DNA from: Candidatus Colwellbacteria bacterium
GTDB taxonomy: Bacteria; Patescibacteriota; Minisyncoccia; UBA6257; Colwellbacteraceae
NCBI GenBank assembly: GCA_028710275.1
Contig: JAQTUL010000001.1
Coordinates: forward strand, 73,031-137,030
DNA length: 64,000 nucleotides
Direction: 5' to 3'
Part shown: positions 25,328-64,000 of the stretch, piece by piece
Numbering within the stretch: the stretch's first letter is position 1
Layout of the letters: every line of letters begins with the position of its first letter
Program-made: the position numbers and the translations under genes
Notes under the pieces: generated by a model
The model's input: the letters and a program-made list of their open reading frames with translations, nothing else
What the model was told of the DNA's origin: nothing
The model's database searches: none

Positions 25328-26997
25328 AGAATTATCTTGGTATAATATTCTATTTGTCCCCCTAAATGTGCAATTTTGTAATGTAAGAGGAGAAGATAAA
25401 GTTGACCCGTTATGTACAATCGTTGATGTATTTGTTCCTGTTGGACAGCTATGGTAAGGTGTTTTATCGAATCTGTGTTTGAACAGGTTAAAAAATTACT
25501 TGTGTTATCACTCGGAACAAGTATACATGATTGCTCATCAACCCCGCTGATAACTATTCCATGAGGTATTGTAATAGGAGGTTCGATGTATGTTCCAGGC
25601 GTTATATTTATAATATAGTTATTTGTTGAAGAAGAATCTGTTATATAATTTAAGGCAGAATTTAGACTCGTAAAATTACCTCCTTTTTTTGAAACAGTAT
25701 ATACATTGTTATTTTTATTATATATATAGAATGGTGATGAAGTTGGTATTATAGTTTTACCAACATCAGTCACACCAAAGAAATACCCACTAGTCCCAGT
25801 GCTGACATTTATATCGATAATATTATCGGTAAGAGATGGACCATTGAATTGAAGGGTACATATTGACGATCCAATAGATTCTATAGCTGTTCCATAATTA
25901 TTTATCACAACAACTTGACAATCAACAATCGCGTTGCTCGTTGCAGAGATTCCAACACCTATATTATCTATTCCGCTAATCTGTCCACTTTCATATCGTA
26001 ATTGACAATTTTGACCGACATTCACACTTGGAGATAATGAATTACTGATTTGATGAATTATAAAGTGGTTCTCTAAACTTAAAAAATTAATAAACGTTGA
26101 ATTATCCATAACCATATCATTTATACAGTCCGTAAAATCACAGTATTCCATATAAATTTCTGAATCTTTCGTGGGGGAATTACAATAAAACCCTTGAAAA
26201 CAGTTTCTTATACTCACTTTATGTATCAGTACAGACGGAATACCTGCATCGGTTACTGATATACCAACACCTGTTACGTTTTCTATTATACAATTATATA
26301 ATGTGGATCCTTCTTCCATATGTATCATATCATGACCACCATTGGGTCTAATAATCACACTTTCTAATTGTTGTCCCGCTACATAAACATAACCTGGTAT
26401 CGTTAATAAATTTTCGTTATAAACCCCCGTTTTTATATACACCATAAATGGATTTGTTACACTTGGACCGGGAATAGAAGATACACATGATGATATCGCG
26501 CTTTCGATCGTAAGAAATTCATCTGCTGTGGGATTGTTCGATACTGTTTTAAGATTTGTTACAGGAAACAAATACGGGTCGAAAAGTAAATTACCTGTAC
26601 TATCTGTTGATAAATACGATTTTGACATATTAGGTATAGATTGTGGTAGAGTTAATATTATCGACCCAGTCATCCCAGTCGATGATTGAAAAGTTGTGCT
26701 ATAAGCTCCGGATATAAAATTAATACTACTGGTTCGAAGTGTGTTTGATACCAAGAAATCAGATGTGACTGAATTGGAAAACGATGCTGTATCTCCTGAC
26801 AGATTGTTTGTTACGACAATATTATTGAATACTGGATCTGTTGGAATTTTTCCCGAACCAGTAGGACCCGTAGGTCCGCCATTTCCAAATCCCGGATTTA
26901 GAATCTGTTCAGTTGCTACTACACCGGATATAGTTTTTACATCACTTCTTACAGGTAGAATGTAACGTAGTTTAAACGACATTATTAATAACAACAA
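25309..26997 (-). CDS. Fibre-associated / parallel beta-helix (pectate-lyase-like) repeat protein
   Basis: Rich in N/T/S/G/I/V with 'NCIIENVTGVGISVTD'-type beta-helix rungs. Overlaps the upstream fibre gene by 19 nt. Confidence 0.55.
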   Translation of the reverse strand: MLLLIMSFKLRYILPVRSDVKTISGVVATEQILNPGFGNGGPTGPTGSGKIPTDPVFNNIVVTNNLSGDTASFSNSVTSDFLVSNTLRTSSINFISGAYSTTFQSSTGMTGSIILTLPQSIPNMSKSYLSTDSTGNLLFDPYLFPVTNLKTVSNNPTADEFLTIESAISSCVSSIPGPSVTNPFMVYIKTGVYNENLLTIPGYVYVAGQQLESVIIRPNGGHDMIHMEEGSTLYNCIIENVTGVGISVTDAGIPSVLIHKVSIRNCFQGFYCNSPTKDSEIYMEYCDFTDCINDMVMDNSTFINFLSLENHFIIHQISNSLSPSVNVGQNCQLRYESGQISGIDNIGVGISATSNAIVDCQVVVINNYGTAIESIGSSICTLQFNGPSLTDNIIDINVSTGTSGYFFGVTDVGKTIIPTSSPFYIYNKNNNVYTVSKKGGNFTSLNSALNYITDSSSTNNYIINITPGTYIEPPITIPHGIVISGVDEQSCILVPSDNTSNFLTCSNTDSIKHLTIAVQQEQIHQRLYITGQLYLLLLHYKIAHLGGQIEYYTKIILWDHQS

Positions 26998-29854: not shown

Positions 29855-32770
29855 CTAGACCAGGACACTTTTCCTCGTATTCTGTTTCTCGACCCAATCA
29901 TCCCACTCAACCTCTGTGTTCAGATGGTTTGCGATATTCTTCACATTAGTGAACGACATCTTGCTATCACTCACTCTCACCATTCGCGCGGGATCAAAGT
30001 TGCGTCCATAGTTGAACTGGATAACCATGTTCTTTGAGTTCACAACCAATCCATCACTGTAGGACTTCACGAGATCCTCCATCTTCTTCACCAACTTTCG
30101 TTGAATATATCCAGACTGAGCAGTATCAGCAACCTGAAGACCATTCGCCAACCCAAAGTTAAGTGTACTAGGAATCGTAAGATCGTATAGTTTTTCATGT
30201 CCATCACAAGACATTTTTTCAATTGATACTATTTTATCCAATACGATATCGTTATGAACTTCGAAGTGTCGGTGAGGATTTTTCGGGGTCTTAATCATGT
30301 TCAACTTCTCTTGTTTCACAGAGTCAATCATGGGAATGGTCTCAGCAAACTTCTTAGACCACACATTTGAGATCTGAAGTCTATATGAAGGTTGAATAAC
30401 TTTTGTTCCCAGATTATTTTTCTTAATCTGTACCTTAGAAATCTTACCGAAAATACCAAGAGTGTTACACAATGTACTGATACCCTCAATAAGTTTAGGT
30501 GAAGAAGTTCCAGCCACAATCATATTTCTCTCAACAGCACCATCTCCTGAAAAATATCCGTTCAGGAGGGAGACGATGAATTCTTTAGGAGCTGTATATG
30601 CTTCATTAGGTACAAATTTATTTTTTGCTCCGTGACCAACAAACTTATCAAGGAATTGAGACAACACACTCGATCGACCTCGAACATCGCTTGTAAATCC
30701 TTCGATACCGTTAATTTTAAAGTTTTCAGAAAATTCAATCGAGTGTTTGACAAACCATCCTTTAACAAACTCACGAATTGTATCGTCGTTGTTGGTTATC
30801 TGAACATAATGTCCGTCAGTATTCCCTTCGGCCAGGTACAATCCGATAAAGAGACCGTTGTCAGAATTTAATTCGAAAGAATCCGGGATTTTAATATCTG
30901 TTCTACATCCTGAAAACGGATAGATATATCCATCTTTAATGTTATCGACATTAGATCTAGTTATCACTCGTTGAAGTTTCGCCTTTGACGTATATGGTAC
31001 AGTGAATGTTGATCCGTTATTCTCTTTCCACCAACCTCTCGGAATATGAAATTCTGTCATAGCATTCTCCATGCTGGAAACAGCTACATTAAACTCAGTT
31101 CCATAAACATATTTATCTTTTGGTAGATACTTGGACATATCCACATAATTTTTAACGATTGGGATGTTCATCAGATTCATTGTCACAGGGAGATAATCAC
31201 CCACCTTAATATCTGGAGTATAGATCTGTTCCAACACTCTCTTCTCTTTGTTCCATACAAGAAGAGATTTCGATTCGGCAACCACAACACTTCTCCCACC
31301 ATACGTTGTTACTTTATAGATATTTTTACTAGGGTCATGTCGTGTAGCATGGGAGATCTCCTCCCATGAGACGTTACCATCATTATCCGTAGTTGAAATG
31401 TACGTTTCTTTTTCCAACTCTAATGTCTCCATATTCTGTTCGTCTTGATGAACAATGTTTTTATTCCCATTCATCAAATCATCAATCCATTCTCCGATTT
31501 GTACATATTTAGCATCACCATCTTCAATGATGATGATAGTTGTTTCTTTTGTTACAGATTTCACTGCTGTGTCGATAACACCTTCTCGACCACCCTCTGC
31601 GTGGAAGAAGAACTCTTGAACAGTCAATCCCTCCATGTAACAGTGAGCTACAAATCCTCTGCTTTCATAAAGTAGTCGTCTCTCCATATCCTCTTGTTCC
31701 GGAGTTGCATCTTCCGGATACTCACCCTGTGTCTTGGAGTATGTAGGATTAGTTCGTCCACCAAATGTGAGAGGGATACGCTTACCCTCAACGTTCTGTT
31801 GTCCGACCAGAACTCGGATCTGTGAGTTGTTCACATAGCTACCTTTGGATCCCGCACTGATCATCACGTTCAAGGAATTTTCATACTCGAACTCGTTCTT
31901 GGTGATCAGCTGACCAATTGTGGTTGCGCCGTTGAGCGCGTTATTGACCTTTCGCTCACGCAACTCCGGATCACTCTCTGACGTCTCAATACTTTGAGCC
32001 TCCATAAAACTCTTGGATATCTGGTTCTGAACATCCGTGACTCTGATTGGAAGACAGTCCTCAATTCCGATAGAGAATCCTCGAGCCTTCAGACAGTGAT
32101 TGATCAACCACTGGTAGTAACTGACAAAGTCGATTGTGATCTTCGCTCCATACTCCTTCTCCAGTTTGTGTACAATGGAACTGTGACTGTCACCGAGAAC
32201 CGACTTGTTGAGAATACCCTTCAACATGACACCTCGAACAATTTCAACACCGCTCGGTTCGAACGTGTATTCGAAGTCATCGGGAAGAAGATACGAAAAC
32301 AGACAGTGTCCAGTGTACATGTAATCATCAATCTCCGCCTCAGTAAATTTTTGCCATCGCAAGACGCTCTTGATATGATCCATCTTACGAAAAATGTAAT
32401 CCTCAGTATCCTCTTCGTATGTGATCGAAGAATGTTTTCTCTTTTCGAGTTCAGAGATCTTGGACATAACAGCCGTTCTGTTTCCCGAAATAAACCAATC
32501 GTCCACGCATGTCAGAGCATCATTGAAGAGGACACGATCGATGTAGTTTCGCGGGTTGAACTTACGGACAGTCTTTCCGTTGACAGTCTCGTTGTAATAG
32601 AATCCACGGGTGAAGAGATTTCCACCGGTAAGCGCATCCTGTGTGATTGAGAGTAGAAGACGCGCGTTTTGACTACTCTTCAAGAGAGCAGCAGTTGAGG
32701 ATAATAGTAGTAATTCTGCCACAGCCTCATACGACTGCGGAATATATAAATTCATCTCGTCCCCATCGAA
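29855..32770 (-). CDS. RPB1: DNA-directed RNA polymerase largest subunit (RPB1), exon 3, containing an intein; the frame ends about 90 aa after the intein host site
   Basis: Begins 'FDGDEMNLYIPQS' (the NADFDGDEMN active site). Contains '...HAEGGREGVIDTAVK[intein]TAQSGYIQRKLVKKMEDL' and 'VIQFNYG'. The track ORF start at 32833 is intronic sequence read through. Confidence 0.85.
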   Translation of the reverse strand, partial: FDGDEMNLYIPQSYEAVAELLLLSSTAALLKSSQNARLLLSITQDALTGGNLFTRGFYYNETVNGKTVRKFNPRNYIDRVLFNDALTCVDDWFISGNRTAVMSKISELEKRKHSSITYEEDTEDYIFRKMDHIKSVLRWQKFTEAEIDDYMYTGHCLFSYLLPDDFEYTFEPSGVEIVRGVMLKGILNKSVLGDSHSSIVHKLEKEYGAKITIDFVSYYQWLINHCLKARGFSIGIEDCLPIRVTDVQNQISKSFMEAQSIETSESDPELRERKVNNALNGATTIGQLITKNEFEYENSLNVMISAGSKGSYVNNSQIRVLVGQQNVEGKRIPLTFGGRTNPTYSKTQGEYPEDATPEQEDMERRLLYESRGFVAHCYMEGLTVQEFFFHAEGGREGVIDTAVKSVTKETTIIIIEDGDAKYVQIGEWIDDLMNGNKNIVHQDEQNMETLELEKETYISTTDNDGNVSWEEISHATRHDPSKNIYKVTTYGGRSVVVAESKSLLVWNKEKRVLEQIYTPDIKVGDYLPVTMNLMNIPIVKNYVDMSKYLPKDKYVYGTEFNVAVSSMENAMTEFHIPRGWWKENNGSTFTVPYTSKAKLQRVITRSNVDNIKDGYIYPFSGCRTDIKIPDSFELNSDNGLFIGLYLAEGNTDGHYVQITNNDDTIREFVKGWFVKHSIEFSENFKINGIEGFTSDVRGRSSVLSQFLDKFVGHGAKNKFVPNEAYTAPKEFIVSLLNGYFSGDGAVERNMIVAGTSSPKLIEGISTLCNTLGIFGKISKVQIKKNNLGTKVIQPSYRLQISNVWSKKFAETIPMIDSVKQEKLNMIKTPKNPHRHFEVHNDIVLDKIVSIEKMSCDGHEKLYDLTIPSTLNFGLANGLQVADTAQSGYIQRKLVKKMEDLVKSYSDGLVVNSKNMVIQFNYGRNFDPARMVRVSDSKMSFTNVKNIANHLNTEVEWDDWVEKQNTRKSVLV
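30125..31558 (-). mobile_element. Intein (478 aa) with a LAGLIDADG homing-endonuclease domain inserted in RPB1 between AVK and TAQSGY
   Basis: N-terminal 'SVTKETTIIII' (block A). 'ISHATRHD' (block B). LAGLIDADG motifs 'LFIGLYLAEGNTDG' and 'LLNGYFSGDGAV'. C-terminal '...YDLTI...NFGLANGLQVAD' then +1 Thr. Removing it restores 'DTAVKTAQSGYIQRKL' at canonical length. Confidence 0.75.
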
Positions 32771-34061
32771 CAGGGGGATCCAATATCTTTCAATATCGGC
32801 CGGACTATATCTTAAGCATGTCGGATGACACACCCATTCCCGTTTAGTCTCTGAACCTTCTCCATATCTTACGAGTTAGGAGCTTGGCTGCGGATTGTCC
32901 ATTGTTCATCTTTTACGTTTTTACTGTTCCGTAGGTCGTTACCCCCGGTCTCACTCAAGGATTTCTCAATGAGGATAGTAGTAAAAGCTTTAGGAGTTTC
33001 CCGCAATTTGAGGATGTCGCGATACCTTCATATCACTAGCAAGTTATATTAAAGAACAAATTACACTGTTTACCCGATGAAGTATTTTGTTCAACTTCAT
33101 CAGCAGCTTGCTGTTTCAGACTTCGATAGTTAAAAGAGAGTCAAAATTATCGGAAACAAAGACCTTATCTTTTGTTGACAAGGCGTAACAAAATTCCAAA
33201 GATATATCGAGAGCATCAGATAAAGAGATGTTTTTACTTCCAAAATTTATTCTCTTTTCTTCCGATTGTTTAGTCATGATGTCTGTGCGAACATACACCG
33301 CAACTGTATAGAACGTTTTGTATTTGAATGGTGTCACTCTTAGTTTTGATATGTTCATTCCGGAAAATAGATCTAGTTTATCTTGGTATTTGGGTTTATC
33401 GATATAACTGATTATTTCAGTATCATCGCCCTTTATTTTGTTGATAAACCGATTCGCATTCTTTACACATAACTCAAAGGTTTTGTGTTTTCCGGAATTA
33501 AACATTACACGAACTTTGTTTTCGTGACCTTCTATTTGAAGCATCACTCTTACAGAGTCGTATACACCATTCTTTTTTATAGGACGCTGAATGATCTTTT
33601 GAATATTCATTTTCTTGTACTCTGAAATCTTTACAGACATTGTTTTGAAGCCTTCCCCTCCCTTCTGAACATTGTATCCGTTTGGAATCATCGAGTTGAG
33701 ATCTTGAATATAAAAACATTCACGAGAATCCGCTTGAGATAGTTCACACATCTCAAGTTCTTCTATAGAGAAGTCTTCGTCACCATACTTTCTAATATCA
33801 ACGTGAAGAGGAGACGACGCTCCCTTCTTTGCTCTAAAAAGATGCCCTTTGAATCTCCCGTCGATACCATATGTTGAAAAATATCCTCTACAATCCTTTA
33901 CACGTTCTAGATAGTTACGAGTTTGTCCTACAAACACTTTGCCAGTTGTTTTACTGGTAATTTTATAAATGATGCTCTTGATTATCTTTGACATTTTATC
34001 ACACTGTAGATCTTTGTTATATGTTTAACGATAATGTTTAAATCGATTTTTAAAACGGTTA
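32771..34061 (-). mobile_element. Group I (IC1/Tetrahymena-type) self-splicing intron 2 in RPB1, carrying a GIY-YIG ORF in its P1 loop
   Basis: P1: the exon end 'ucagau' pairs with the IGS 'gucuga' located just after the ORF. Core: 'caaauugcgggaaa', 'cgcagccaagcuccuaa', 'agacuaaa', 'uaagauauaguc'. P9: 'ccgauauuGAAAgauauugg'. Omega-G lies before 'uucgaugggg'. Splicing gives ...KTYNSD|FDGDEMN. Boundaries are inferred to within a few nt. Confidence 0.7.
33116..33994 (-). CDS. GIY-YIG homing endonuclease (intron-encoded)
   Basis: 'IYKITSKTTGKVFVGQTRNYLERV' (GIY...YIG), a conserved Arg, Glu and 'NGYN'. It lies entirely within intron 2. Confidence 0.8.
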   Translation of the reverse strand: MSKIIKSIIYKITSKTTGKVFVGQTRNYLERVKDCRGYFSTYGIDGRFKGHLFRAKKGASSPLHVDIRKYGDEDFSIEELEMCELSQADSRECFYIQDLNSMIPNGYNVQKGGEGFKTMSVKISEYKKMNIQKIIQRPIKKNGVYDSVRVMLQIEGHENKVRVMFNSGKHKTFELCVKNANRFINKIKGDDTEIISYIDKPKYQDKLDLFSGMNISKLRVTPFKYKTFYTVAVYVRTDIMTKQSEEKRINFGSKNISLSDALDISLEFCYALSTKDKVFVSDNFDSLLTIEV

Positions 34062-52016: not shown

Positions 52017-55000
52017 TTAAATCAGAGGCTTAGTTTTATGATTCTCCTCATCATCACTACTATCATCGTAATCACTACTCTCATCATCTTCCGATACCTC
52101 TTTGATCTCTACAGCCTTTACTTTCTTCACCGGTGATTTTTTCACCGGCGATTTCGTGTTTCGTTGTGGACTCTTTGGTTTCTTCTTATGAAGCATCGAG
52201 AAGTCCTCTTCGACATCTTCCTCAACAACTTCCTCAGGAACCTCGATATCAAATGAATCTTTTTCCTCATTCTTATCGAGGTCCTCTTCACGAATGATGA
52301 TCGCCTTTCCCTCCTTCTCATCATCTTCCGCGGTTCTCAAACGATATCCCTTCCACTTATGACTCGGAGTAAGATCACCCCACTTCTTTGTTATCTCATC
52401 CCTCAGATCCTCCTTGGATGGAATTTGAGAATGAAGGTTAGGATAGGAATCGTCGAACCAGGTCTTGAATGAGTTGTAAGTCTCGACGACAGACATAAGA
52501 GCTTTTTCATTCGAAGGCTCATAGACAATCTTCTCCATGATGAACTGGAGGAATACGTCGTTCTGCTTACGATAAGCAGCCGTGGCTGAACGAACTTTTT
52601 CTGGTTCAGCCATACGTCCATCCTTGAGAATCTTTTTGAATGTGTCAAACATCATCCACATAAATGGAGCTTTCATTTTGGGAAGTTTATCAGTAAAGTA
52701 AGGGTCTCGTGGAAATCTCTTCAATCGAATCTGATCTTCAAGAAGCTCAGGAACATTATCTTTCGGGAAACATGCCTCATGAGGAAGAACTCGAATACGA
52801 TTCCATGTTGCGGGATCATCACATGGAAGTCTCGGAAGCTTATTACATATTAAACTAAGCTTGAACTGAGGCTTCAGTTCCTGACTTTCTTTGTACAGTC
52901 CACGATAATAGATGATATCGTTACCACTTAATTCCTTCAGAATACCGATGTTGATCACATCTTTGCTATTCGGCTCTTGAAGGACAGCAAAACGGACTCC
53001 AGGAAGACCGGCATACTCTGGAGTTGCTTGAGATGACTGAGTACGCTTTCCACTAATCAGAGAGGTTGGAAGAATCTTCATGTATCGACCGAGTGTCAAC
53101 TTAAGAAGATCCATATTAACAGACTTTGCGTTATCACCTTCACCTGACATATTAAGAAATGTCTTACTACTATTACCTCCACGAAGAAGACTTGCTGTAT
53201 ATTCCATCCAATATTGTTTCAATTCCGGATCGGGAAACACTTTCGAGAAGTGATCATCTACGTCGATAACCTCTTGACTATCCCAAGAGTACTCCTGAAA
53301 ATCGTAACCAGTCGTAAGACTGACATAATCAGTCGGTCGTCCGGGACGAAAACGCATTTCTCCGAGATCGAGAATACCGTTACTGAAATGAATAAGATTG
53401 ATATCAGAGTCCAATTTATCGATAAAACTGTCATCGACAAACAGTTCGATACAATTGTGAACCACGACACCATTTGCAACAAAGTTATGAATATTGTCAA
53501 CGGTAATATCATATACAGTTCTCTTTCCGACATTTTTAATATTGTGTACATCAACAATAAGAGATGGAAGAGTTAAACTATCTCTCTTAAAGCAATATGA
53601 AGGTCCATTATCCGAAAAGAAGAAATCTTTTACACCAATACTCTCCATATATTCAATGGGTTTAATCCCCAGTTTATACCTAATCTCACCAATATTTCTC
53701 ATATTATTAACCAATGTTGAGTATTTAGGAACCACTTTATCATTTAAGAATCTACCATCTCTAGTTTCAACGTTGAGTTTAGCTTGATCGATATAGTTTC
53801 TAAGGTTTACTCTCTTTACACCATCATATCCAGAAATTTTCTTTAATTCTTTTAGGAATTCTATTCTCTGGTTGCATACTGTATTATACATATTCGCGTA
53901 AGAACATGCTGCTGTTAGTTTCAATAATTTATTTGTACAATAACGAAATCCAATATTATCTGAAAACAAAAGAATATCCCGAAAACTGACATCAAATTCT
54001 ATTTCATACAGATCACGATTTTTAACCTTTCGTTTGGATTGAATATTAACATTGGATACTCCACATTTAGAAAACATTTTTACTATATCATTCATCATAA
54101 TTTGAAGAGACTCCACATGCTCTCCACATTTAGATTGTGAAAATCCGACAGATGTTATAACATTCGAATTTGTGACTACATTTGCGTGGCCATCTCCACC
54201 CATAAGTCCTCCCAGAAATTCTCTGATAATAGGAATAGGGCAATCATCTGTAAGAAGAAATTCCGGAAGAGTAGATTTTTGAACCGATCTTCTACCTAAA
54301 CTTATTCCAGGAATAAGAGCAATATTTTTACTCACACATGAAGGAATTGCTACACCATAAGTCCACCCTTTTGTTTCTTCATAAAAACTACTATGATTGT
54401 TAGTTATTTTTGGTCTCTTTCCACAGAGAATTTGTATGTCATCCACAAAATTATTTGCATCAATTAAAGATCCTAATGAGACATTTGCATTAATAATATT
54501 AGTCGACTTGTTATGAATTATAGTTTCGTCAGATAACATTAATCCGATAATTCGACTGAAAATTAGAGATTTTTCATATTCAGATTGTGTATCGGTTTTC
54601 AGAGTGAGAGAACCAAAAGTTGTAGTCCAGCCGTCACATAATTTCATATCATTCACGACACTAATTTTGACACCTGTGATACTAGTTCTCACTTTATCAA
54701 CACCCGGTTTCAAATCACCAGAGAATACCCATCGTCCGTCAGAAGTAAGAATTGGATGATCATGTGTTGAAACAAGTTTGGTTCCATCGGAAAGCATCAA
54801 TTCTACACAGTCCTTTTCTCCTTTGTTCATAAAATTGGTCTGTCTTTCGTTCAATATTCCATTCATATTTTCATCCCACCCAATAAGTCTATTTGTATTA
54901 TTATTTAGTTCTTCGATGGGAACACTCAATCCGTTACTCATTGTTACATACGTACCCGCGCTGATACATTCAGCGATAATATTATTTTTGAACGGTGTCG

Positions 55001-56492
55001 ATTTCAAGCTTGCAATAATTTTATTAACTGTTTTCAAACGCTTCTGAAGTTCAGCATCATCATCTTGTGAACCCATATCCTCACAAACCTTCTTCTTCAT
55101 GTTCTTGTATTCATTAACAAGTTCCGTAGAGATCTTTCGTCTCAAATCGATACCCTGTTTATTTACAACCCATCGGTGATTCTTATAATGAAACCACACC
55201 TTCTTTTCAGGACATGCACACACAAATTCACCTTTATATTTATTATGAAGCAACTTGGCCATATCGTAGTGTCCTCCGTTGAGAGACTCGTTGAATAATC
55301 GATCGTTATCCTTCCTTTGAATCTTTTTATACTCTTCAGGACTATCAATCTTCGCGTAATGATAGAGACTTCCGATAGTACGATTTCTCTTTTCCATACG
55401 CTCCCATTGATACACACATCCGGCCTCTGAAAAATTCTTCTTAGAGGTCTTGGATGAGAACTCAATCCACATATCAAGTGCGTCCTCTGTACCATCTCCA
55501 ATATTGAATAGGACCCATCCAATATCTAACCAGTCGTCGAAGTTGTCTGCGCGAGATGAAGAGATAAGTTTCATCAACTCTCGCGCCTTCTTAAGTGCTT
55601 CAGGAGTAGGCATATCTTCGAACAGCTTCTTACTCTCCTTCGCCTTCTTGAGAAGTTTCTTGGTGATAATGTTCAAGTCGGCTTTCACTGTGATGGGTTC
55701 TCGAGTTCCCGGATGAATAGAGAGAATTCGTGGAAGATAGTACTCGAGTGGATGTTCATCCATTTTTACCGGATCACCATGTACATCAGTCAATTTAAAA
55801 TCACTTAATGCCTCCTCTAGAGAGATCTCGTTACAGTCATCATCAAAAACCTTAGTAACCTTATAGGATTGAAGATACTCCTTCTTTCGAGATCCATACA
55901 GAAGCCAGAACTTTGAAGTACAACTCTTATCAATCACTTCCTCAGACTTGATAACTCCAATATCTTTGAAGAGATCCTTATCTGCTACCTCCTTTCGAAC
56001 ACGAGGGATAAGATGAACATCCTGATCAACCTTGTGCATAATCGCATTGATAAAATGTAAATGAAAACCGTGCTTAATCTCCTCCTTTGTTTTGTCGTAT
56101 GTTGGATGTTCCTTTTCTAGAACGACACAGACACCATGTCGTTTCTCGTAGTTCTTCACAGTCTGCTTCAGATGTTTTTGGTAAATCATTGCTGTCTGTC
56201 TAATATGTGTGTCTTTGTAAAGTTTTTTATCAAGAGGATGTTTGGCTGGATCATACGACAATTTAATATCCGAATCATTGAGTACAGGAAGAAACTCACC
56301 CGGACGTTCTGCGAGGCCGGATACCATCTTCGGATTACTGTACATTGTATCACAATAAAGTTTCCACCACTCCTCATCATCTTTTCTTGTCAAGTTATAT
56401 TTCCCTGTAGGTTGAATCTGTGAAACATGAGTGTAGTACCCCTCACCTTTTTCTTGACGTGTAGCGATGAATTTTCGAAGAGAGAGATCCAT
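52017..56492 (-). CDS. D5-like primase-helicase (AEP primase plus SF3 helicase) interrupted by an intein
   Basis: N-terminal primase region 'KHGFHLHFINAIMHKVDQD'. Helicase region after the intein: '…NMSGEGDNAKS…' (Walker A-like), 'FAVLQEPNS', 'PQFKLSLICNKLP'. Confidence 0.8.
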   Translation of the reverse strand: MDLSLRKFIATRQEKGEGYYTHVSQIQPTGKYNLTRKDDEEWWKLYCDTMYSNPKMVSGLAERPGEFLPVLNDSDIKLSYDPAKHPLDKKLYKDTHIRQTAMIYQKHLKQTVKNYEKRHGVCVVLEKEHPTYDKTKEEIKHGFHLHFINAIMHKVDQDVHLIPRVRKEVADKDLFKDIGVIKSEEVIDKSCTSKFWLLYGSRKKEYLQSYKVTKVFDDDCNEISLEEALSDFKLTDVHGDPVKMDEHPLEYYLPRILSIHPGTREPITVKADLNIITKKLLKKAKESKKLFEDMPTPEALKKARELMKLISSSRADNFDDWLDIGWVLFNIGDGTEDALDMWIEFSSKTSKKNFSEAGCVYQWERMEKRNRTIGSLYHYAKIDSPEEYKKIQRKDNDRLFNESLNGGHYDMAKLLHNKYKGEFVCACPEKKVWFHYKNHRWVVNKQGIDLRRKISTELVNEYKNMKKKVCEDMGSQDDDAELQKRLKTVNKIIASLKSTPFKNNIIAECISAGTYVTMSNGLSVPIEELNNNTNRLIGWDENMNGILNERQTNFMNKGEKDCVELMLSDGTKLVSTHDHPILTSDGRWVFSGDLKPGVDKVRTSITGVKISVVNDMKLCDGWTTTFGSLTLKTDTQSEYEKSLIFSRIIGLMLSDETIIHNKSTNIINANVSLGSLIDANNFVDDIQILCGKRPKITNNHSSFYEETKGWTYGVAIPSCVSKNIALIPGISLGRRSVQKSTLPEFLLTDDCPIPIIREFLGGLMGGDGHANVVTNSNVITSVGFSQSKCGEHVESLQIMMNDIVKMFSKCGVSNVNIQSKRKVKNRDLYEIEFDVSFRDILLFSDNIGFRYCTNKLLKLTAACSYANMYNTVCNQRIEFLKELKKISGYDGVKRVNLRNYIDQAKLNVETRDGRFLNDKVVPKYSTLVNNMRNIGEIRYKLGIKPIEYMESIGVKDFFFSDNGPSYCFKRDSLTLPSLIVDVHNIKNVGKRTVYDITVDNIHNFVANGVVVHNCIELFVDDSFIDKLDSDINLIHFSNGILDLGEMRFRPGRPTDYVSLTTGYDFQEYSWDSQEVIDVDDHFSKVFPDPELKQYWMEYTASLLRGGNSSKTFLNMSGEGDNAKSVNMDLLKLTLGRYMKILPTSLISGKRTQSSQATPEYAGLPGVRFAVLQEPNSKDVINIGILKELSGNDIIYYRGLYKESQELKPQFKLSLICNKLPRLPCDDPATWNRIRVLPHEACFPKDNVPELLEDQIRLKRFPRDPYFTDKLPKMKAPFMWMMFDTFKKILKDGRMAEPEKVRSATAAYRKQNDVFLQFIMEKIVYEPSNEKALMSVVETYNSFKTWFDDSYPNLHSQIPSKEDLRDEITKKWGDLTPSHKWKGYRLRTAEDDEKEGKAIIIREEDLDKNEEKDSFDIEVPEEVVEEDVEEDFSMLHKKKPKSPQRNTKSPVKKSPVKKVKAVEIKEVSEDDESSDYDDSSDDEENHKTKPLI
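53454..54968 (-). mobile_element. Intein (505 aa, canonical Cys...His-Asn/Cys) with a LAGLIDADG homing-endonuclease domain in the D5 primase-helicase
   Basis: Starts 'CISAGTYVTM', block B 'THDHP', LAGLIDADG motifs 'RIIGLMLSDETI' and 'FLGGLMGGDGHA', ends 'FVANGVVVHN|CIELF'. Confidence 0.75.
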
Positions 56493-61355: not shown

Positions 61356-61823
61356 CTATTCCTCCATCGCGAATTTTGTCCCGACATCCATCTCCTCCAT
61401 AAGACTCTCCAGAGTCTTATTTGATGATAATCTCGGAAGTTCAATCTTTTTGGGGATAAATTTCTGGATAAGAGCCCAAGAGAGTTTAGATGTAAATAAC
61501 TGATAATTACGTTGTTCACATCTATAGTAGAATTGAGTCAATGGGTATTCTTTCTCCATAAGATCGACAATTGGAGAAAAACAATGATGAATTGATGTCG
61601 GGTGTATTTCAATCCATTCATCGTCCACCAACACACTAAATATTCTTTCATAATAGTTTACTGTTTTTATCTGGAATCTAGAAAGAAGAAAATCGACAAG
61701 ACCATCCTCCTCCTTGTTGTAGAGATCTTCAGAATATTCATCAAGATATTCCTCAAGAAGGGATGTAATTTTCTTCAGGCTCTCCTGTATATCCTCTGAA
61801 CGTTTTCTCTGAGAAGTTTCCAT
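61356..61823 (-). CDS. Hypothetical protein
   Basis: 155-aa ORF. Confidence 0.45.
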   Translation of the reverse strand: METSQRKRSEDIQESLKKITSLLEEYLDEYSEDLYNKEEDGLVDFLLSRFQIKTVNYYERIFSVLVDDEWIEIHPTSIHHCFSPIVDLMEKEYPLTQFYYRCEQRNYQLFTSKLSWALIQKFIPKKIELPRLSSNKTLESLMEEMDVGTKFAMEE

Positions 61824-61876
61824 AATGGTAGTAATAACAGGTGTAACAAATCTACCTACACATCGATAAAATTCAC

Positions 61877-62728
61877 TTGTTCTACTTTATCAAAATTCTT
61901 ATTTTCTTTTCAATAAGAAAGATGTATTACTCTTCGAGCCAAAAAGAGATAGTCGCAAAGGATCCGGATAGCTATTCCGATTTCGGGGCCCCTTATAAAT
62001 CGTTTCCTCTTATTTCTGACCCTGTTGATGTGTGTCTACCTGGAAGTTTTCTGAGTCCTGAAAAATCTTCAGATTTGGACTTGAACAACTGCCCTGTTTA
62101 TATGAGTCAGAGATGTGCTTTGTCGTGGGATGATAAATGTGAACTCTATGTGAATTCTCTTGACGATCCTGTATTACTTAAAAATTTTATCCGTTCTACT
62201 GCAAGCAAGAAGTTCTGTCATCTGACTTCAGATTCTACGTGTAAAGTACTCTGTCAACCGTTCAATCCTATCGCACAGGAATCCCCACAGGTTTGTTCAA
62301 ATGTCGGAAAGGATGTCCTGAAGAACGCTGCTGATAATATCGATATCGGATGGTATCTTCCCGTAAATATGAGTCCAGATTATATGAGTGCTACTTGTAA
62401 CCAAACTTGTGATAACGTGGCGGGAACAGCAATTGATCCGTCTGATATAGTTATCGATGCATGTCTTAAGTATGGATTCTGTAATGATATTCTCACCAAT
62501 GTATGCCAACTCTCAGGAGGAAAATCTTCTCATCCCGGGCTTCAACAGTTCTGTTCTAACTTAACGGTGAAAGAGGGACTCGTGAATCGAGCAAAAAGAG
62601 GTCCTGTTGCACCGTTTAAAGTTTCTCAACAGAGGAAAGACGGTAATTCGATTCTATATTTCCTTTTCTTTGTTTTCTTGTGTATTGTGGGGTGGATGAT
62701 TTACAAACGCTACAAAAAGACACATTAA
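61877..62728 (+). CDS. Cys-rich tail-anchored membrane protein
   Basis: Many paired Cys and a C-terminal 'ILYFLFFVFLCIVGWMIY' helix. Possible alternative start at 61922. Confidence 0.5.
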   Translation: MFYFIKILIFFSIRKMYYSSSQKEIVAKDPDSYSDFGAPYKSFPLISDPVDVCLPGSFLSPEKSSDLDLNNCPVYMSQRCALSWDDKCELYVNSLDDPVLLKNFIRSTASKKFCHLTSDSTCKVLCQPFNPIAQESPQVCSNVGKDVLKNAADNIDIGWYLPVNMSPDYMSATCNQTCDNVAGTAIDPSDIVIDACLKYGFCNDILTNVCQLSGGKSSHPGLQQFCSNLTVKEGLVNRAKRGPVAPFKVSQQRKDGNSILYFLFFVFLCIVGWMIYKRYKKTH

Positions 62729-62735
62729 ATAGTTT

Positions 62736-62812
62736 GGTATTAATACTATTGTCAGTATTAATACTCTGAGTTCAATATGTTTCATAGAGAATGATGGACT
62801 CGAGCGAGTCCA
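62736..62812. repeat. Two tandem 'gtattaatac' palindromes and a GC-rich hairpin 'ggactcgagcgagtcc', downstream of the TnpB-like ORF
   Basis: Read directly from the sequence. Positioned where an IS605 right-end / omega-RNA scaffold would be expected. Confidence 0.4.
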
Positions 62813-63061
62813 GAGAAACAACTGCGGTGATGCTATTACAACTTACAGTAATATTTACTCCCTCATTTTCAGATTTAATAATATTCTGTGCGACGTCAAT
62901 AAAAGGTTCTTCATCAAAAATGTGTGGACCAGTGATCGAGTTTAATAGATTTTTCCCGTTTACGTCGTTCCATCTGGGCCATCCCGATGTGAATAAGGAA
63001 GTTATTTCCTTATGTCCAATACCAAATGTCCAGATACCAGGATCCCCAAATATACAAAAAT

Positions 63062-64000
63062 CTAATTTGTAATTGGAATCCCGGACATCGAACTAGTCGA
63101 TGGATCGACACTCGTATCCTCCTCTACGAAAATGAATTCGGGTGGAGTAGTGTCATGAGTAACTTTCTTTCCTCTCTGGAGACCTGGAGGTCTTTCAGGT
63201 GAGGACTTTGCTAAGGAGCAGATGTTAAGGGACGCATTAGTATCTCTATTCCAGTACTGGTTACAGGTTGTGCACCTTAACAAGCCATGGACTAGTGATT
63301 GATTCCCTCTTCTCCACGGACGAGGACATTCTCGCCACATAAACTTCTTATTCACTCCTTCACACTGATAACAGGTACAAGAGGTTTTGTGTTCGTCCAC
63401 TAGATAAACCTTGTAACCATTCTTTCTAAAAATGTCTCTTACCCCCTTTCCGAGAGTTGGCTCTTTCCACTTCATCTGTCGTTTCTGTTCCCAATCACCT
63501 ATCGCTATCACCGCTTCAGTTGGACCTCCAAACACGTTCTTAAAGTTACGAATCATCTTACTCTCTGATTTCTGTCGTAGAATATGTCCTCTCCACCTTA
63601 TGGATCTGAATACCTCTTTCTGGTACACAGATCTACATTCCTCTTCAACTTCTCTCTTCTTAGAGACGTAGTACATGAACTCGGTGTAATCAGATGAAGT
63701 TGAACGATAGTGAGAGAGTTCCTCCTCTATACTCTTTACTGGTTCTCTTTGTTTATCTAATTTGTGTCTGTGGAATCTCTTACAGCACTCCCTCTTTCTC
63801 TGAACAGCCGAGTATCGAAATCTCTTCTCTCCATCAGTACAGTGAATAAGATCCTCCTTCCCGGGATCGATACCAACTACAGAGGTGTAGAGATCTCTTG
63901 TAGAGAGAAATTCGGGTCCAGTAATATAAGGTTCAGTGAACTCAGGAGTTTTTTCTTTATCTAAACTCTCCTTGTGAAGAAGAATCGAGACTCCCTTACC
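63062..64000 (-). mobile_element. TnpB/Fanzor-like RuvC nuclease gene (IS200/IS605 OrfB family), 5'-truncated by the window edge
   Basis: The frame is open to the window edge. RuvC-I 'VVGIDPGKEDLIHCTDGE'. RuvC-II 'LVDEHKTSCTC'. Zn finger 'CYQCEG...CTTCNQYW'. RuvC-III 'NRDTNASLNICS'. Confidence 0.7.

Follow-up and report, generated by a model that had tools for sequence, protein, structure and literature searches.

A predicted Fanzor1 gene fragment in giant-virus DNA and the putative 3' end of its element

The described systems closest to the gene considered here are the Fanzor1 nucleases of known structure, SpuFz1 (8GKH, 9CEU-9CEZ), PpFz1 (9CF0), and GtFz1 (9CER), and Fz1 has also been reported in giant viruses (PMC10432273). 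The gene, a Fanzor1-family endonuclease of which the C-terminal 312 codons and the stop are seen, lies at positions 63062..64000 on the minus strand of the 64,000-nucleotide (nt) stretch of DNA that was analyzed as a whole (the window), and its open frame runs off the window edge. The encoded protein has in common with the solved Fanzor1 enzymes a homologous RuvC and zinc-finger half and the same order of motifs, namely xIDPxK, a Gly at the canonical RuvC-II position, DE[YH]KTS, CxxC...CxxC, and WNRD. In contrast to these enzymes of fungi or algae, it is encoded by a virus, is known from its C-terminal half alone, and carries a long C-terminal tail that reads through a putative RNA scaffold.

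Two further systems provide a frame for the comparison. ApmFNuc (ApmFz2) of Acanthamoeba polyphaga mimivirus is, like the window protein, a giant-virus-borne RNA-guided nuclease with a relocated catalytic Glu, and its guide (fRNA) is encoded between the 3' end of the open reading frame (ORF) and the right end of the element (PMC10530073). It is, however, a Fanzor2 that is associated with an IS607 TnpA and followed by ~200 nt of 3' non-coding sequence, whereas the window gene is Fanzor1-like, has no visible transposase, and would be followed by only ~16-25 nt. TnpB of the IS200/IS605 elements (e.g., ISDra2) belongs to the same superfamily, and the logic is presumed to be the same, with an omega-RNA that overlaps the 3' end of the ORF and a guide that lies beyond the right end. 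The window protein differs from it in its partial, sub-cut-off match to the TnpB model, its relocated catalytic Glu, and its eukaryote-infecting host. Closest in setting is a family of Fanzor1 genes in other giant-virus contigs. These are single-ORF elements in which homology ends shortly past the stop, as is proposed for the window; most of them (77 of the 80 loci searched) carry a common RNA module, in place of which the window and its two closest relatives with available DNA share 3' islands of their own.

For the window locus, we judge it probable that the gene is the C-terminal half of a giant-virus Fanzor1, that its element ends at 63046-63037, that the DNA from 63045 to 62772 is flank, and that a hairpin at 62737-62764 is a generic gene-end structure.

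Motifs, relatives, and intactness of the gene fragment

The minus frame from 64000 to 63065 is free of stop codons over 312 codons and is closed by a TAG at 63064-63062, which confirms the uninterrupted frame up to the window edge that had been described in an earlier, sequence-only reading of this DNA. Such a frame greatly exceeds what chance would yield. Codon usage is coding-like in the Fanzor frame only, with a score of 0.162 per codon. That reading had also placed the gene in a TnpB/Fanzor-like family of RNA-guided nucleases, and this placement is borne out by matches to Fanzor1 structures and to PF07282. In a phmmer search, the best match in the PDB is SpuFz1 of Spizellomyces punctatus (PDB 8gkh; E=3.4e-29; fragment residues 40-266), and further matches are PpFz1 of Parasitella (9cf0; E=3e-23) and GtFz1 of Guillardia (9cer; E=2.6e-8). 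PF07282 (Cas12f1-like TNB) is matched over residues 192-260 with E=6.6e-9 and 36.2 bits, relative to a cut-off of 26.3. The match to NCBIfam NF040570 (guided_TnpB) is partial, as it reaches 41.7 bits against a cut-off of 100 and covers only profile positions 331-387 of 389.

The motifs listed in the sequence-only reading (GIDPGK, VDEHKTS, CxxC...CxxC, and NRDTNASLNI) are all located at the expected places, and the invariance of individual residues was read from an alignment with 23 homologues. The RuvC-I motif GIDPGK (63857..63874, minus strand) aligns with 'VIDPNK' of SpuFz1 and contains the catalytic Asp, fragment residue D45, which is nearly invariant. At the canonical RuvC-II position, IGDWEQ (63485..63502, minus strand), a Gly is observed in place of the usual Glu, and both G168 and D169 are invariant. 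The VDEHKTS motif (63380..63400, minus strand), in which D202 and E203 are invariant, follows 35 residues past G168. Fanzors have Gly or Pro in place of the canonical RuvC-II Glu and use a conserved alternative Glu ~45 residues downstream (Jiang et al., PMC10530073). Based on this pattern and on the Gly of IGDWEQ, E203 is assigned as the relocated catalytic Glu; the motif itself was thus correctly noticed, whereas its earlier label of RuvC-II belongs to IGDWEQ.

The zinc-finger (TNB) region (63263..63379, minus strand) is composed of a CxCxxC element (CTCYQC, 63379-63362) and a CxxC element (CTTC, 63274-63263). Its cysteines, C208, C210, C213, C243, and C246, are invariant inside the subclade of the window protein (the window, Ga0139299_1056212 from JGI, NODE_20211 from ENA, and ERZ27297709). 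In the homologue alignment, C210, C213, and C243 are invariant, C208 is nearly so, and the last Cys is a Gly in some relatives. The RuvC-III motif NRDTNASLNI (63221..63250, minus strand) holds the catalytic Asp D253, and residues W250, R252, D253, N255, N259, and I260 are invariant. The predicted catalytic set, which comprises Asp45, the relocated Glu203, Asp253, and the zinc finger, is apparently complete, and the gene is, by these motifs and matches, a Fanzor1, that is, a member of the eukaryotic and viral branch of the TnpB RNA-guided DNA endonucleases.

When the family alignment was used to search IMG/VR, 444 relatives in giant-virus contigs were returned and confirmed by tblastn. This number, together with the published report (PMC10432273), agrees with the earlier statement that Fanzor/TnpB homologues are known in giant viruses. 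The best 80 of the 444 were kept for locus analysis (loci L002-L081). The IMG/VR relatives have ORFs that are mostly 634-709 amino acids (aa) in length, a RuvC-I motif near residue 385, and 36-44% protein identity. The identification of the gene is correct, and such genes are ordinary in giant viruses. It is a member of an already known kind with a divergent 3' region; with Fanzors in giant viruses already documented, the gene alone adds little.

A much closer relative, P0099, was recovered from JGI metagenome 3300011007 by a search with N-terminal halves. This protein of 581 aa has a complete N-terminus, which begins MRGKKCSYKSFKIG, and shares 91% identity with the window fragment. A scan of JGI metagenomes for more members of the subclade returned only relatives of <=44% identity. 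Based on the length of the full-length relatives (634-709 aa, and 581 aa for P0099), about 300-350 N-terminal codons would be expected outside the window, beyond position 64000. An exact 40-mer search of viral contigs for DNA past the window edge gave no match, and protein-seeded scans of viral contigs and GTDB genome contigs returned no relatives.

Comparison of the window with the contig that encodes P0099 (L084, 89% nucleotide identity) reveals 94 differences in the core of the gene, 56 of which fall at codon position 3; the remainder are distributed over position 1 (22), position 2 (10), and indel columns (6). The concentration of differences at the third position indicates that the predicted Fanzor core is under purifying selection. 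Damage is also observed among the close relatives. An 80%-identical copy on the ENA contig ERZ27297709 is split into two proteins of 353 and 245 aa (P0103 and P0001) with RuvC-I lost in the gap, which counts against function, and L084 carries a 2-nt deletion (L084:2020-2031; window 63166-63165) that truncates the tail of the ORF.

A more distant, 47%-identical relative on ENA ERZ23486238 scaffold_280664 (L083:1-2046) has one in-frame stop in the conserved 'KIWxFFF' motif (DQIW*YFFKT). Its remaining frame is intact, an RNA module is recognizable at 30-35 bits, and the stop could reflect a pseudogene, an error, or a reassigned stop codon.

The RNA module of related elements and the putative element end

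Among the 80 IMG/VR loci, pairs that are 85-97% identical in the ORF lose their homology 80-130 nt past the stop. On the upstream side, the copies remain homologous over 150-470 nt ahead of the ATG, and no second ORF is present in this region. Iterated nhmmer searches revealed a module of ~122-123 nt in 77 of the 80 loci searched (e.g., L019:3960-4082 and L072:3923-4045). The offset of this module relative to the stop varies between -177 and +132 nt, and the module is therefore independent of the reading frame. It terminates in ...CAAGGGTGTAAA or ...GGTGTAAA and follows the pattern ...AAUCA-stem-...UUUACAC...CCUUGAA...UUCAAGGGUGUAAA. An RNAalifold analysis of 46 distinct copies supports 22 pairs, with compensatory changes in 16, and four helices: a 5' hairpin, a long-range UUUACAC...GUGUAAA stem, a small hairpin, and a CCUU...AAGG helix. 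No family in Rfam matches the module in these loci. The module is very probably the guide-RNA scaffold of the family and ends at the right end of the element. Extra, inverted matches to the module are found near a Fanzor element at L033:6224-6341 (minus strand, 47.9 bits) and L082:233-346 (minus strand, 17-22 bits); these may be neighbouring or solo right ends.

Two covariance models of the module, R1 built from 46 sequences and R2 from 63, were applied with filters switched off. These models give family members 47-122 bits and still score relatives that are 31-47% identical to the window protein at 30-69 bits. No match to either model is found on L084 or L085, the closest relatives of the window with DNA. 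Nhmmer profiles of the family module likewise have no match in the window, and a search of its last 2 kb against Rfam gave no credible match (E>=1.7). The covariance search that had been put forward as a check of the proposed omega-RNA thus yields no guide-RNA match at the window locus with R1, R2, or Rfam. Elsewhere in the window, R1 gives a weak match (17.2 bits, E=0.18 over the whole window) at 26323-26441; this match falls within an ORF, has many broken pairs, and was judged to be due to chance.

In place of the module, the window shares with L084 and L085 a subclade-specific conserved 3' segment (63037..63170, minus strand), which overlaps the unusual C-terminal tail of the ORF and runs 16-25 nt past its stop. 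In L084, the ORF ends early (...RGKSYS*) at the equivalent of window position ~63150, after the 2-nt deletion. The 55 nt past this stop, which are now non-coding, show 2 differences from the window (~63149-63095), and the L084 contig ends at the equivalent of 63095. L085, which encodes a protein of 57% identity (P0105), shares three islands with the window: ATGACAC, AGTGTCGATCC, and a post-stop TTTTTGTAAATT...TCCTGG (TTTTTGTAWATT..TCCTGG). The post-stop island matches window 63058-63037, where the L085 contig ends. Segment 63215-63040 folds slightly better than shuffled sequences do (z=-1.87, matched by 4 of 200 shuffles), and a GACAC/GUGUC stem is kept in the window, L084, and L085, although three sequences amount to no real covariation. 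On this conservation, segment 63170-63037 is a candidate guide-RNA scaffold together with the right end. The family terminus GTGTAAA/GTGTATA resembles TTGTATAT/TTGTAAAT, which invites the speculation that the segment is a collapsed derivative of the family scaffold.

Two related candidates were set aside. A scan of IMG/VR for the motif ATGACAC-N(25-55)-AGTGTCGATCC gave 15 matches, none of which lies beside a Fanzor, and these are attributed to chance. A terminal two-tier hairpin that appeared to be common to the window and L085 was dropped because its paired positions are non-homologous in the alignment.

The position of the element end is suggested by an independent assembly. Logan contig L001 (SRR22315508, SRR22315508_782503) is 11.5 kb in length and starts at 63075, with 100% identity to the window. 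Logan graphs are built with k=31 and 30-nt overlaps (PMC12424806), and a branch is therefore expected either after 63046 or before 63075. The junction 63046/63045 is favored because conservation with L085 reaches at least 63047. From these observations, we infer an element end at ~63046-63037, 16-25 nt past the stop, with the junction at 63046/63045 and at the latest at ~63037. This putative end falls 235-310 nt short of the right-end candidate that had been named in the sequence-only reading.

Upstream of the Fanzor gene in L084, a short ORF (MNSVVAVYHKKSIPQALRQQVW...; L084:126-215) reaches a stop after 29 codons. It presumably resembles the start of an HNH-endonuclease-like gene, and it may be a gene that was interrupted by the left end of the element.

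The presumed flanking frame and the gene-end hairpins

The 300 nt that follow the Fanzor stop (63064-62765) fold no better than shuffled sequences (z=-0.20). Across most of this stretch, a Met-less open frame of 106 codons is present on the minus strand (62772..63092; codons 63092-62775, stop 62774-62772) and ends 7 nt before the hairpin at 62737-62764. Its codon score of +0.149 per codon lies within the range of the window genes (0.107-0.398), and the antisense ORF scores -0.009. This frame is proposed to be the 3' remnant of a viral gene beside or into which the Fanzor element inserted and would belong to the flank rather than to the element. Inside the same coding-like frame, a perfect AT-rich hairpin with an 8-bp stem is found at 62993-63013 (AATAAGGA-AGTTA-TCCTTATT on the plus strand). 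It lies ~25-35 nt past the inferred right end, where a ~20-nt guide would stop, and this placement may be a coincidence.

The window contains the palindrome GTATTAATAC at two places only (62737-62746 and 62755-62764), and the two copies together form a perfect hairpin with an 11-bp stem and a 6-nt loop (62737..62764). This hairpin is placed symmetrically between two convergent stops, 8 nt past that of the plus-strand gene 61922-62728 and 7 nt past the minus-frame stop 62774-62772. The plus-strand neighbour (61922..62728) encodes an orphan protein of 268 aa, which is present in the ORF list and is also called at 268 aa in the Logan assembly; it has a codon score of 0.167 and no Pfam match. A second, GC-rich hairpin (TGGACTCG-AG-CGAGTCCA; 62795..62812) with an 8-bp stem and a 2-nt loop lies inside the coding-like minus frame, and no specific role is supported for it.

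To place these structures in context, the whole window was scanned for perfect stems of >=9 bp with loops of 2-14 nt, and block shuffles served as the null. The window contains 44 such hairpins, compared with 4.05 (maximum 9) in the shuffles, and 26 of the 44 fall in intergenic DNA, which makes up 12% of the window. A hairpin that starts -5 to +40 nt from the stop is found for 18 of 47 ORFs, relative to 1.4 (maximum 6) by random placement, and ~15 hairpins sit 2-30 nt past stop codons. GC-rich hairpins of >=7 bp are similarly in excess (11 in the window versus 0.7 in shuffles), and the one at 62795-62812 does not stand out among them.

This pattern resembles the 'hairpin rule' of Mimiviridae and Pithovirus, in which palindromes without sequence conservation mark the transcript ends and the sites of polyadenylation (PMC4402537, PMC6163669). 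As in these viruses, the window palindromes are enriched, are not conserved in sequence, and lie a few nt past stops. Because of this window-wide class of post-stop hairpins and its own position beside two convergent stops, the hairpin at 62737-62764 is read as a gene-end signal of both ORFs, and it is predicted to be a giant-virus 'hairpin rule' 3'-end signal of transcripts rather than the right end of the Fanzor element. The two palindromes and the GC-rich hairpin pointed out in the sequence-only reading do exist, the latter with a stem of 8 bp rather than 7, whereas their supposed distinctiveness for this locus does not hold. In genomes that follow the hairpin rule, any gene-end palindrome resembles a transposon end, and the right end proposed earlier illustrates this trap.

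A separate perfect hairpin with a 26-bp stem and a 9-nt loop is observed at 16478-16538, in an intergenic position just upstream of the plus-strand ORF 16542-17390. Its stem far exceeds the 10-13 bp that are usual for the gene-end class.

Alternative readings and the host DNA

The right end and omega-RNA structure had earlier been sought at 62736-62812, which would require an omega-RNA that extends ~300 nt past the stop with the palindromes and the GC-rich hairpin as its terminal structure. The existence of these hairpins, the ~200 nt of conserved non-coding sequence that follow the ORF of the viral Fanzor2 ApmFNuc (PMC10530073), and a distance from the Fanzor stop to the next annotated gene that is unusually long for this genome are all in line with such an arrangement. 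It is nonetheless highly improbable, since the hairpin belongs to the genome-wide post-stop class and lies 8 and 7 nt from two convergent stops, the intervening DNA shows no unusual fold and is coding-like in one frame, and copy-to-copy homology in the related family is already lost ~80-130 nt past the stop. Moreover, the family RNA models have no match on the correct strand, and the Logan break is at 63075, not near 62736. The organism label of the contig suggests a different alternative, namely a bacterial TnpB of a candidate phyla radiation (CPR) bacterium. The neighbouring proteins are indeed deposited as 'Candidatus Colwellbacteria bacterium', and the NCBIfam guided_TnpB model is partially matched; this match is, however, far under its cut-off, the best structural relatives are eukaryotic Fanzor1 proteins, the 444 relatives lie in giant-virus contigs, and the window itself bears giant-virus hallmarks (an intein-containing AEP-D5 protein, an intein-containing Rpb1) and hairpin gene ends. 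Hardly any credence can be given to a bacterial origin.

A decaying or immobilized relic, in which the Fanzor would have lost both its guide-RNA module and its mobility and might be an N-terminally damaged pseudogene, is an unlikely but more substantial alternative. It would explain why the RNA module, which is detected in relatives of 31-47% identity, is undetectable in the window, L084, and L085, and it is compatible with the split and the deletion in the nearest relatives, with the lack of the window protein in NCBI-derived protein sets, and with a single copy in 64 kb. In contrast, all catalytic and zinc-binding residues are intact, the window and L084 differ mainly at third codon positions, the 3' islands are conserved across relatives of 57-91% identity, and the branch of the k=31 graph near the 3' end suggests more than one context in the sample.

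Several observations weigh against a giant-virus Fanzor1 element that ends at 63046-63037. The conserved segment rests on three sequences with no convincing covariation, and its conservation could be at the protein level instead. Instead of a right end, the Logan break might equally represent a polymorphism or a branch at 63076. In 61500-64000 and 62500-63500, the best R1 and R2 scores are 5.5-6 bits, on the wrong strand and with E>1. The proposed flanking frame 63092-62775 has no homologues in Pfam, in a word-indexed search, or in an exhaustive phmmer search, the last of which returned only two repetitive junk proteins from 1.84 billion representatives. Tblastn and blastn searches within the window, which bear on the further identical-ended copies expected earlier, found neither a second copy of the element nor a repeated end. 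The 300-350 N-terminal codons and the left end lie beyond the window, and an intact gene is thus only putative. Finally, the window's own protein and any N-terminal piece from the same metagenome-assembled genome (MAG) are absent from a collection of 15 billion proteins in which the neighbours are present; this absence could fit a pseudogene flag in the NCBI record, although it is no proof of one.

If the giant-virus Fanzor1 element is delimited as proposed, its mode of action can be sketched by analogy with TnpB and Fanzor (PMC10432273, PMC10530073). The protein would associate with a guide RNA encoded by the 3' end of its own ORF and the DNA as far as the right end, and the last ~20 nt of this RNA would come from the flank past 63046-63037. 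The guide would direct cleavage of matching DNA beside a short motif, and such cleavage would favor the retention, persistence, or spread of the element. The scaffold-like segment 63170-63037 would be read through by the unusual tail of the ORF. The DNA at 63045-62772 would be flank, apparently the 3' remnant of a viral gene, and the generic hairpin would serve both this remnant and the convergent plus-strand gene.

It may be asked, tentatively and with considerable doubt, whether the subclade has discarded the common scaffold in favor of a compact one that lies nearly all inside the coding sequence, with ~16-25 nt of non-coding DNA. If so, it would represent a natural re-engineering of a Fanzor guide RNA, with the window copy caught inserted in a viral gene; if the subclade is active, it would provide a second, compact guide architecture for a Fanzor1. 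What remains of mild interest is a rare subclade without the otherwise near-universal RNA module of its family.

The assignment of the window DNA to a giant virus (Nucleocytoviricota) follows from its gene content. The window encodes an AEP/D5 primase-helicase (52017-56492) and an Rpb1-type RNA polymerase subunit (29855-32833), both on the minus strand and both intein-bearing, and Pfam also recognizes a NUDIX protein, among others. Of the window ORFs, seven are identical to NCBI proteins within MDD4930614-MDD4930634 (locus tags PHG66_00475-00575), and the contig that encodes these proteins is 152,625 bp in length and was deposited in a 'Candidatus Colwellbacteria bacterium' MAG. The numbering of the locus tags suggests that the window represents the second 64-kb slice of this contig and that the Fanzor gene accordingly extends past 64000. 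Based on the intein-containing D5 primase, the intein-containing Rpb1, and the hairpin-rule gene ends, this giant-virus contig was evidently mis-binned into the bacterial MAG. The filing of such a contig in GenBank under a CPR bacterium matters for counts of 'bacterial' TnpB or Fanzor genes. The Mimivirus early promoter AAAATTGA is not enriched in the window (2 seen versus 10 expected); no viral family is therefore assigned, and the virus need not be mimivirid. A LAGLIDADG homing-endonuclease domain that is also detected in the window is part of the intein of the Rpb1-type polymerase subunit.

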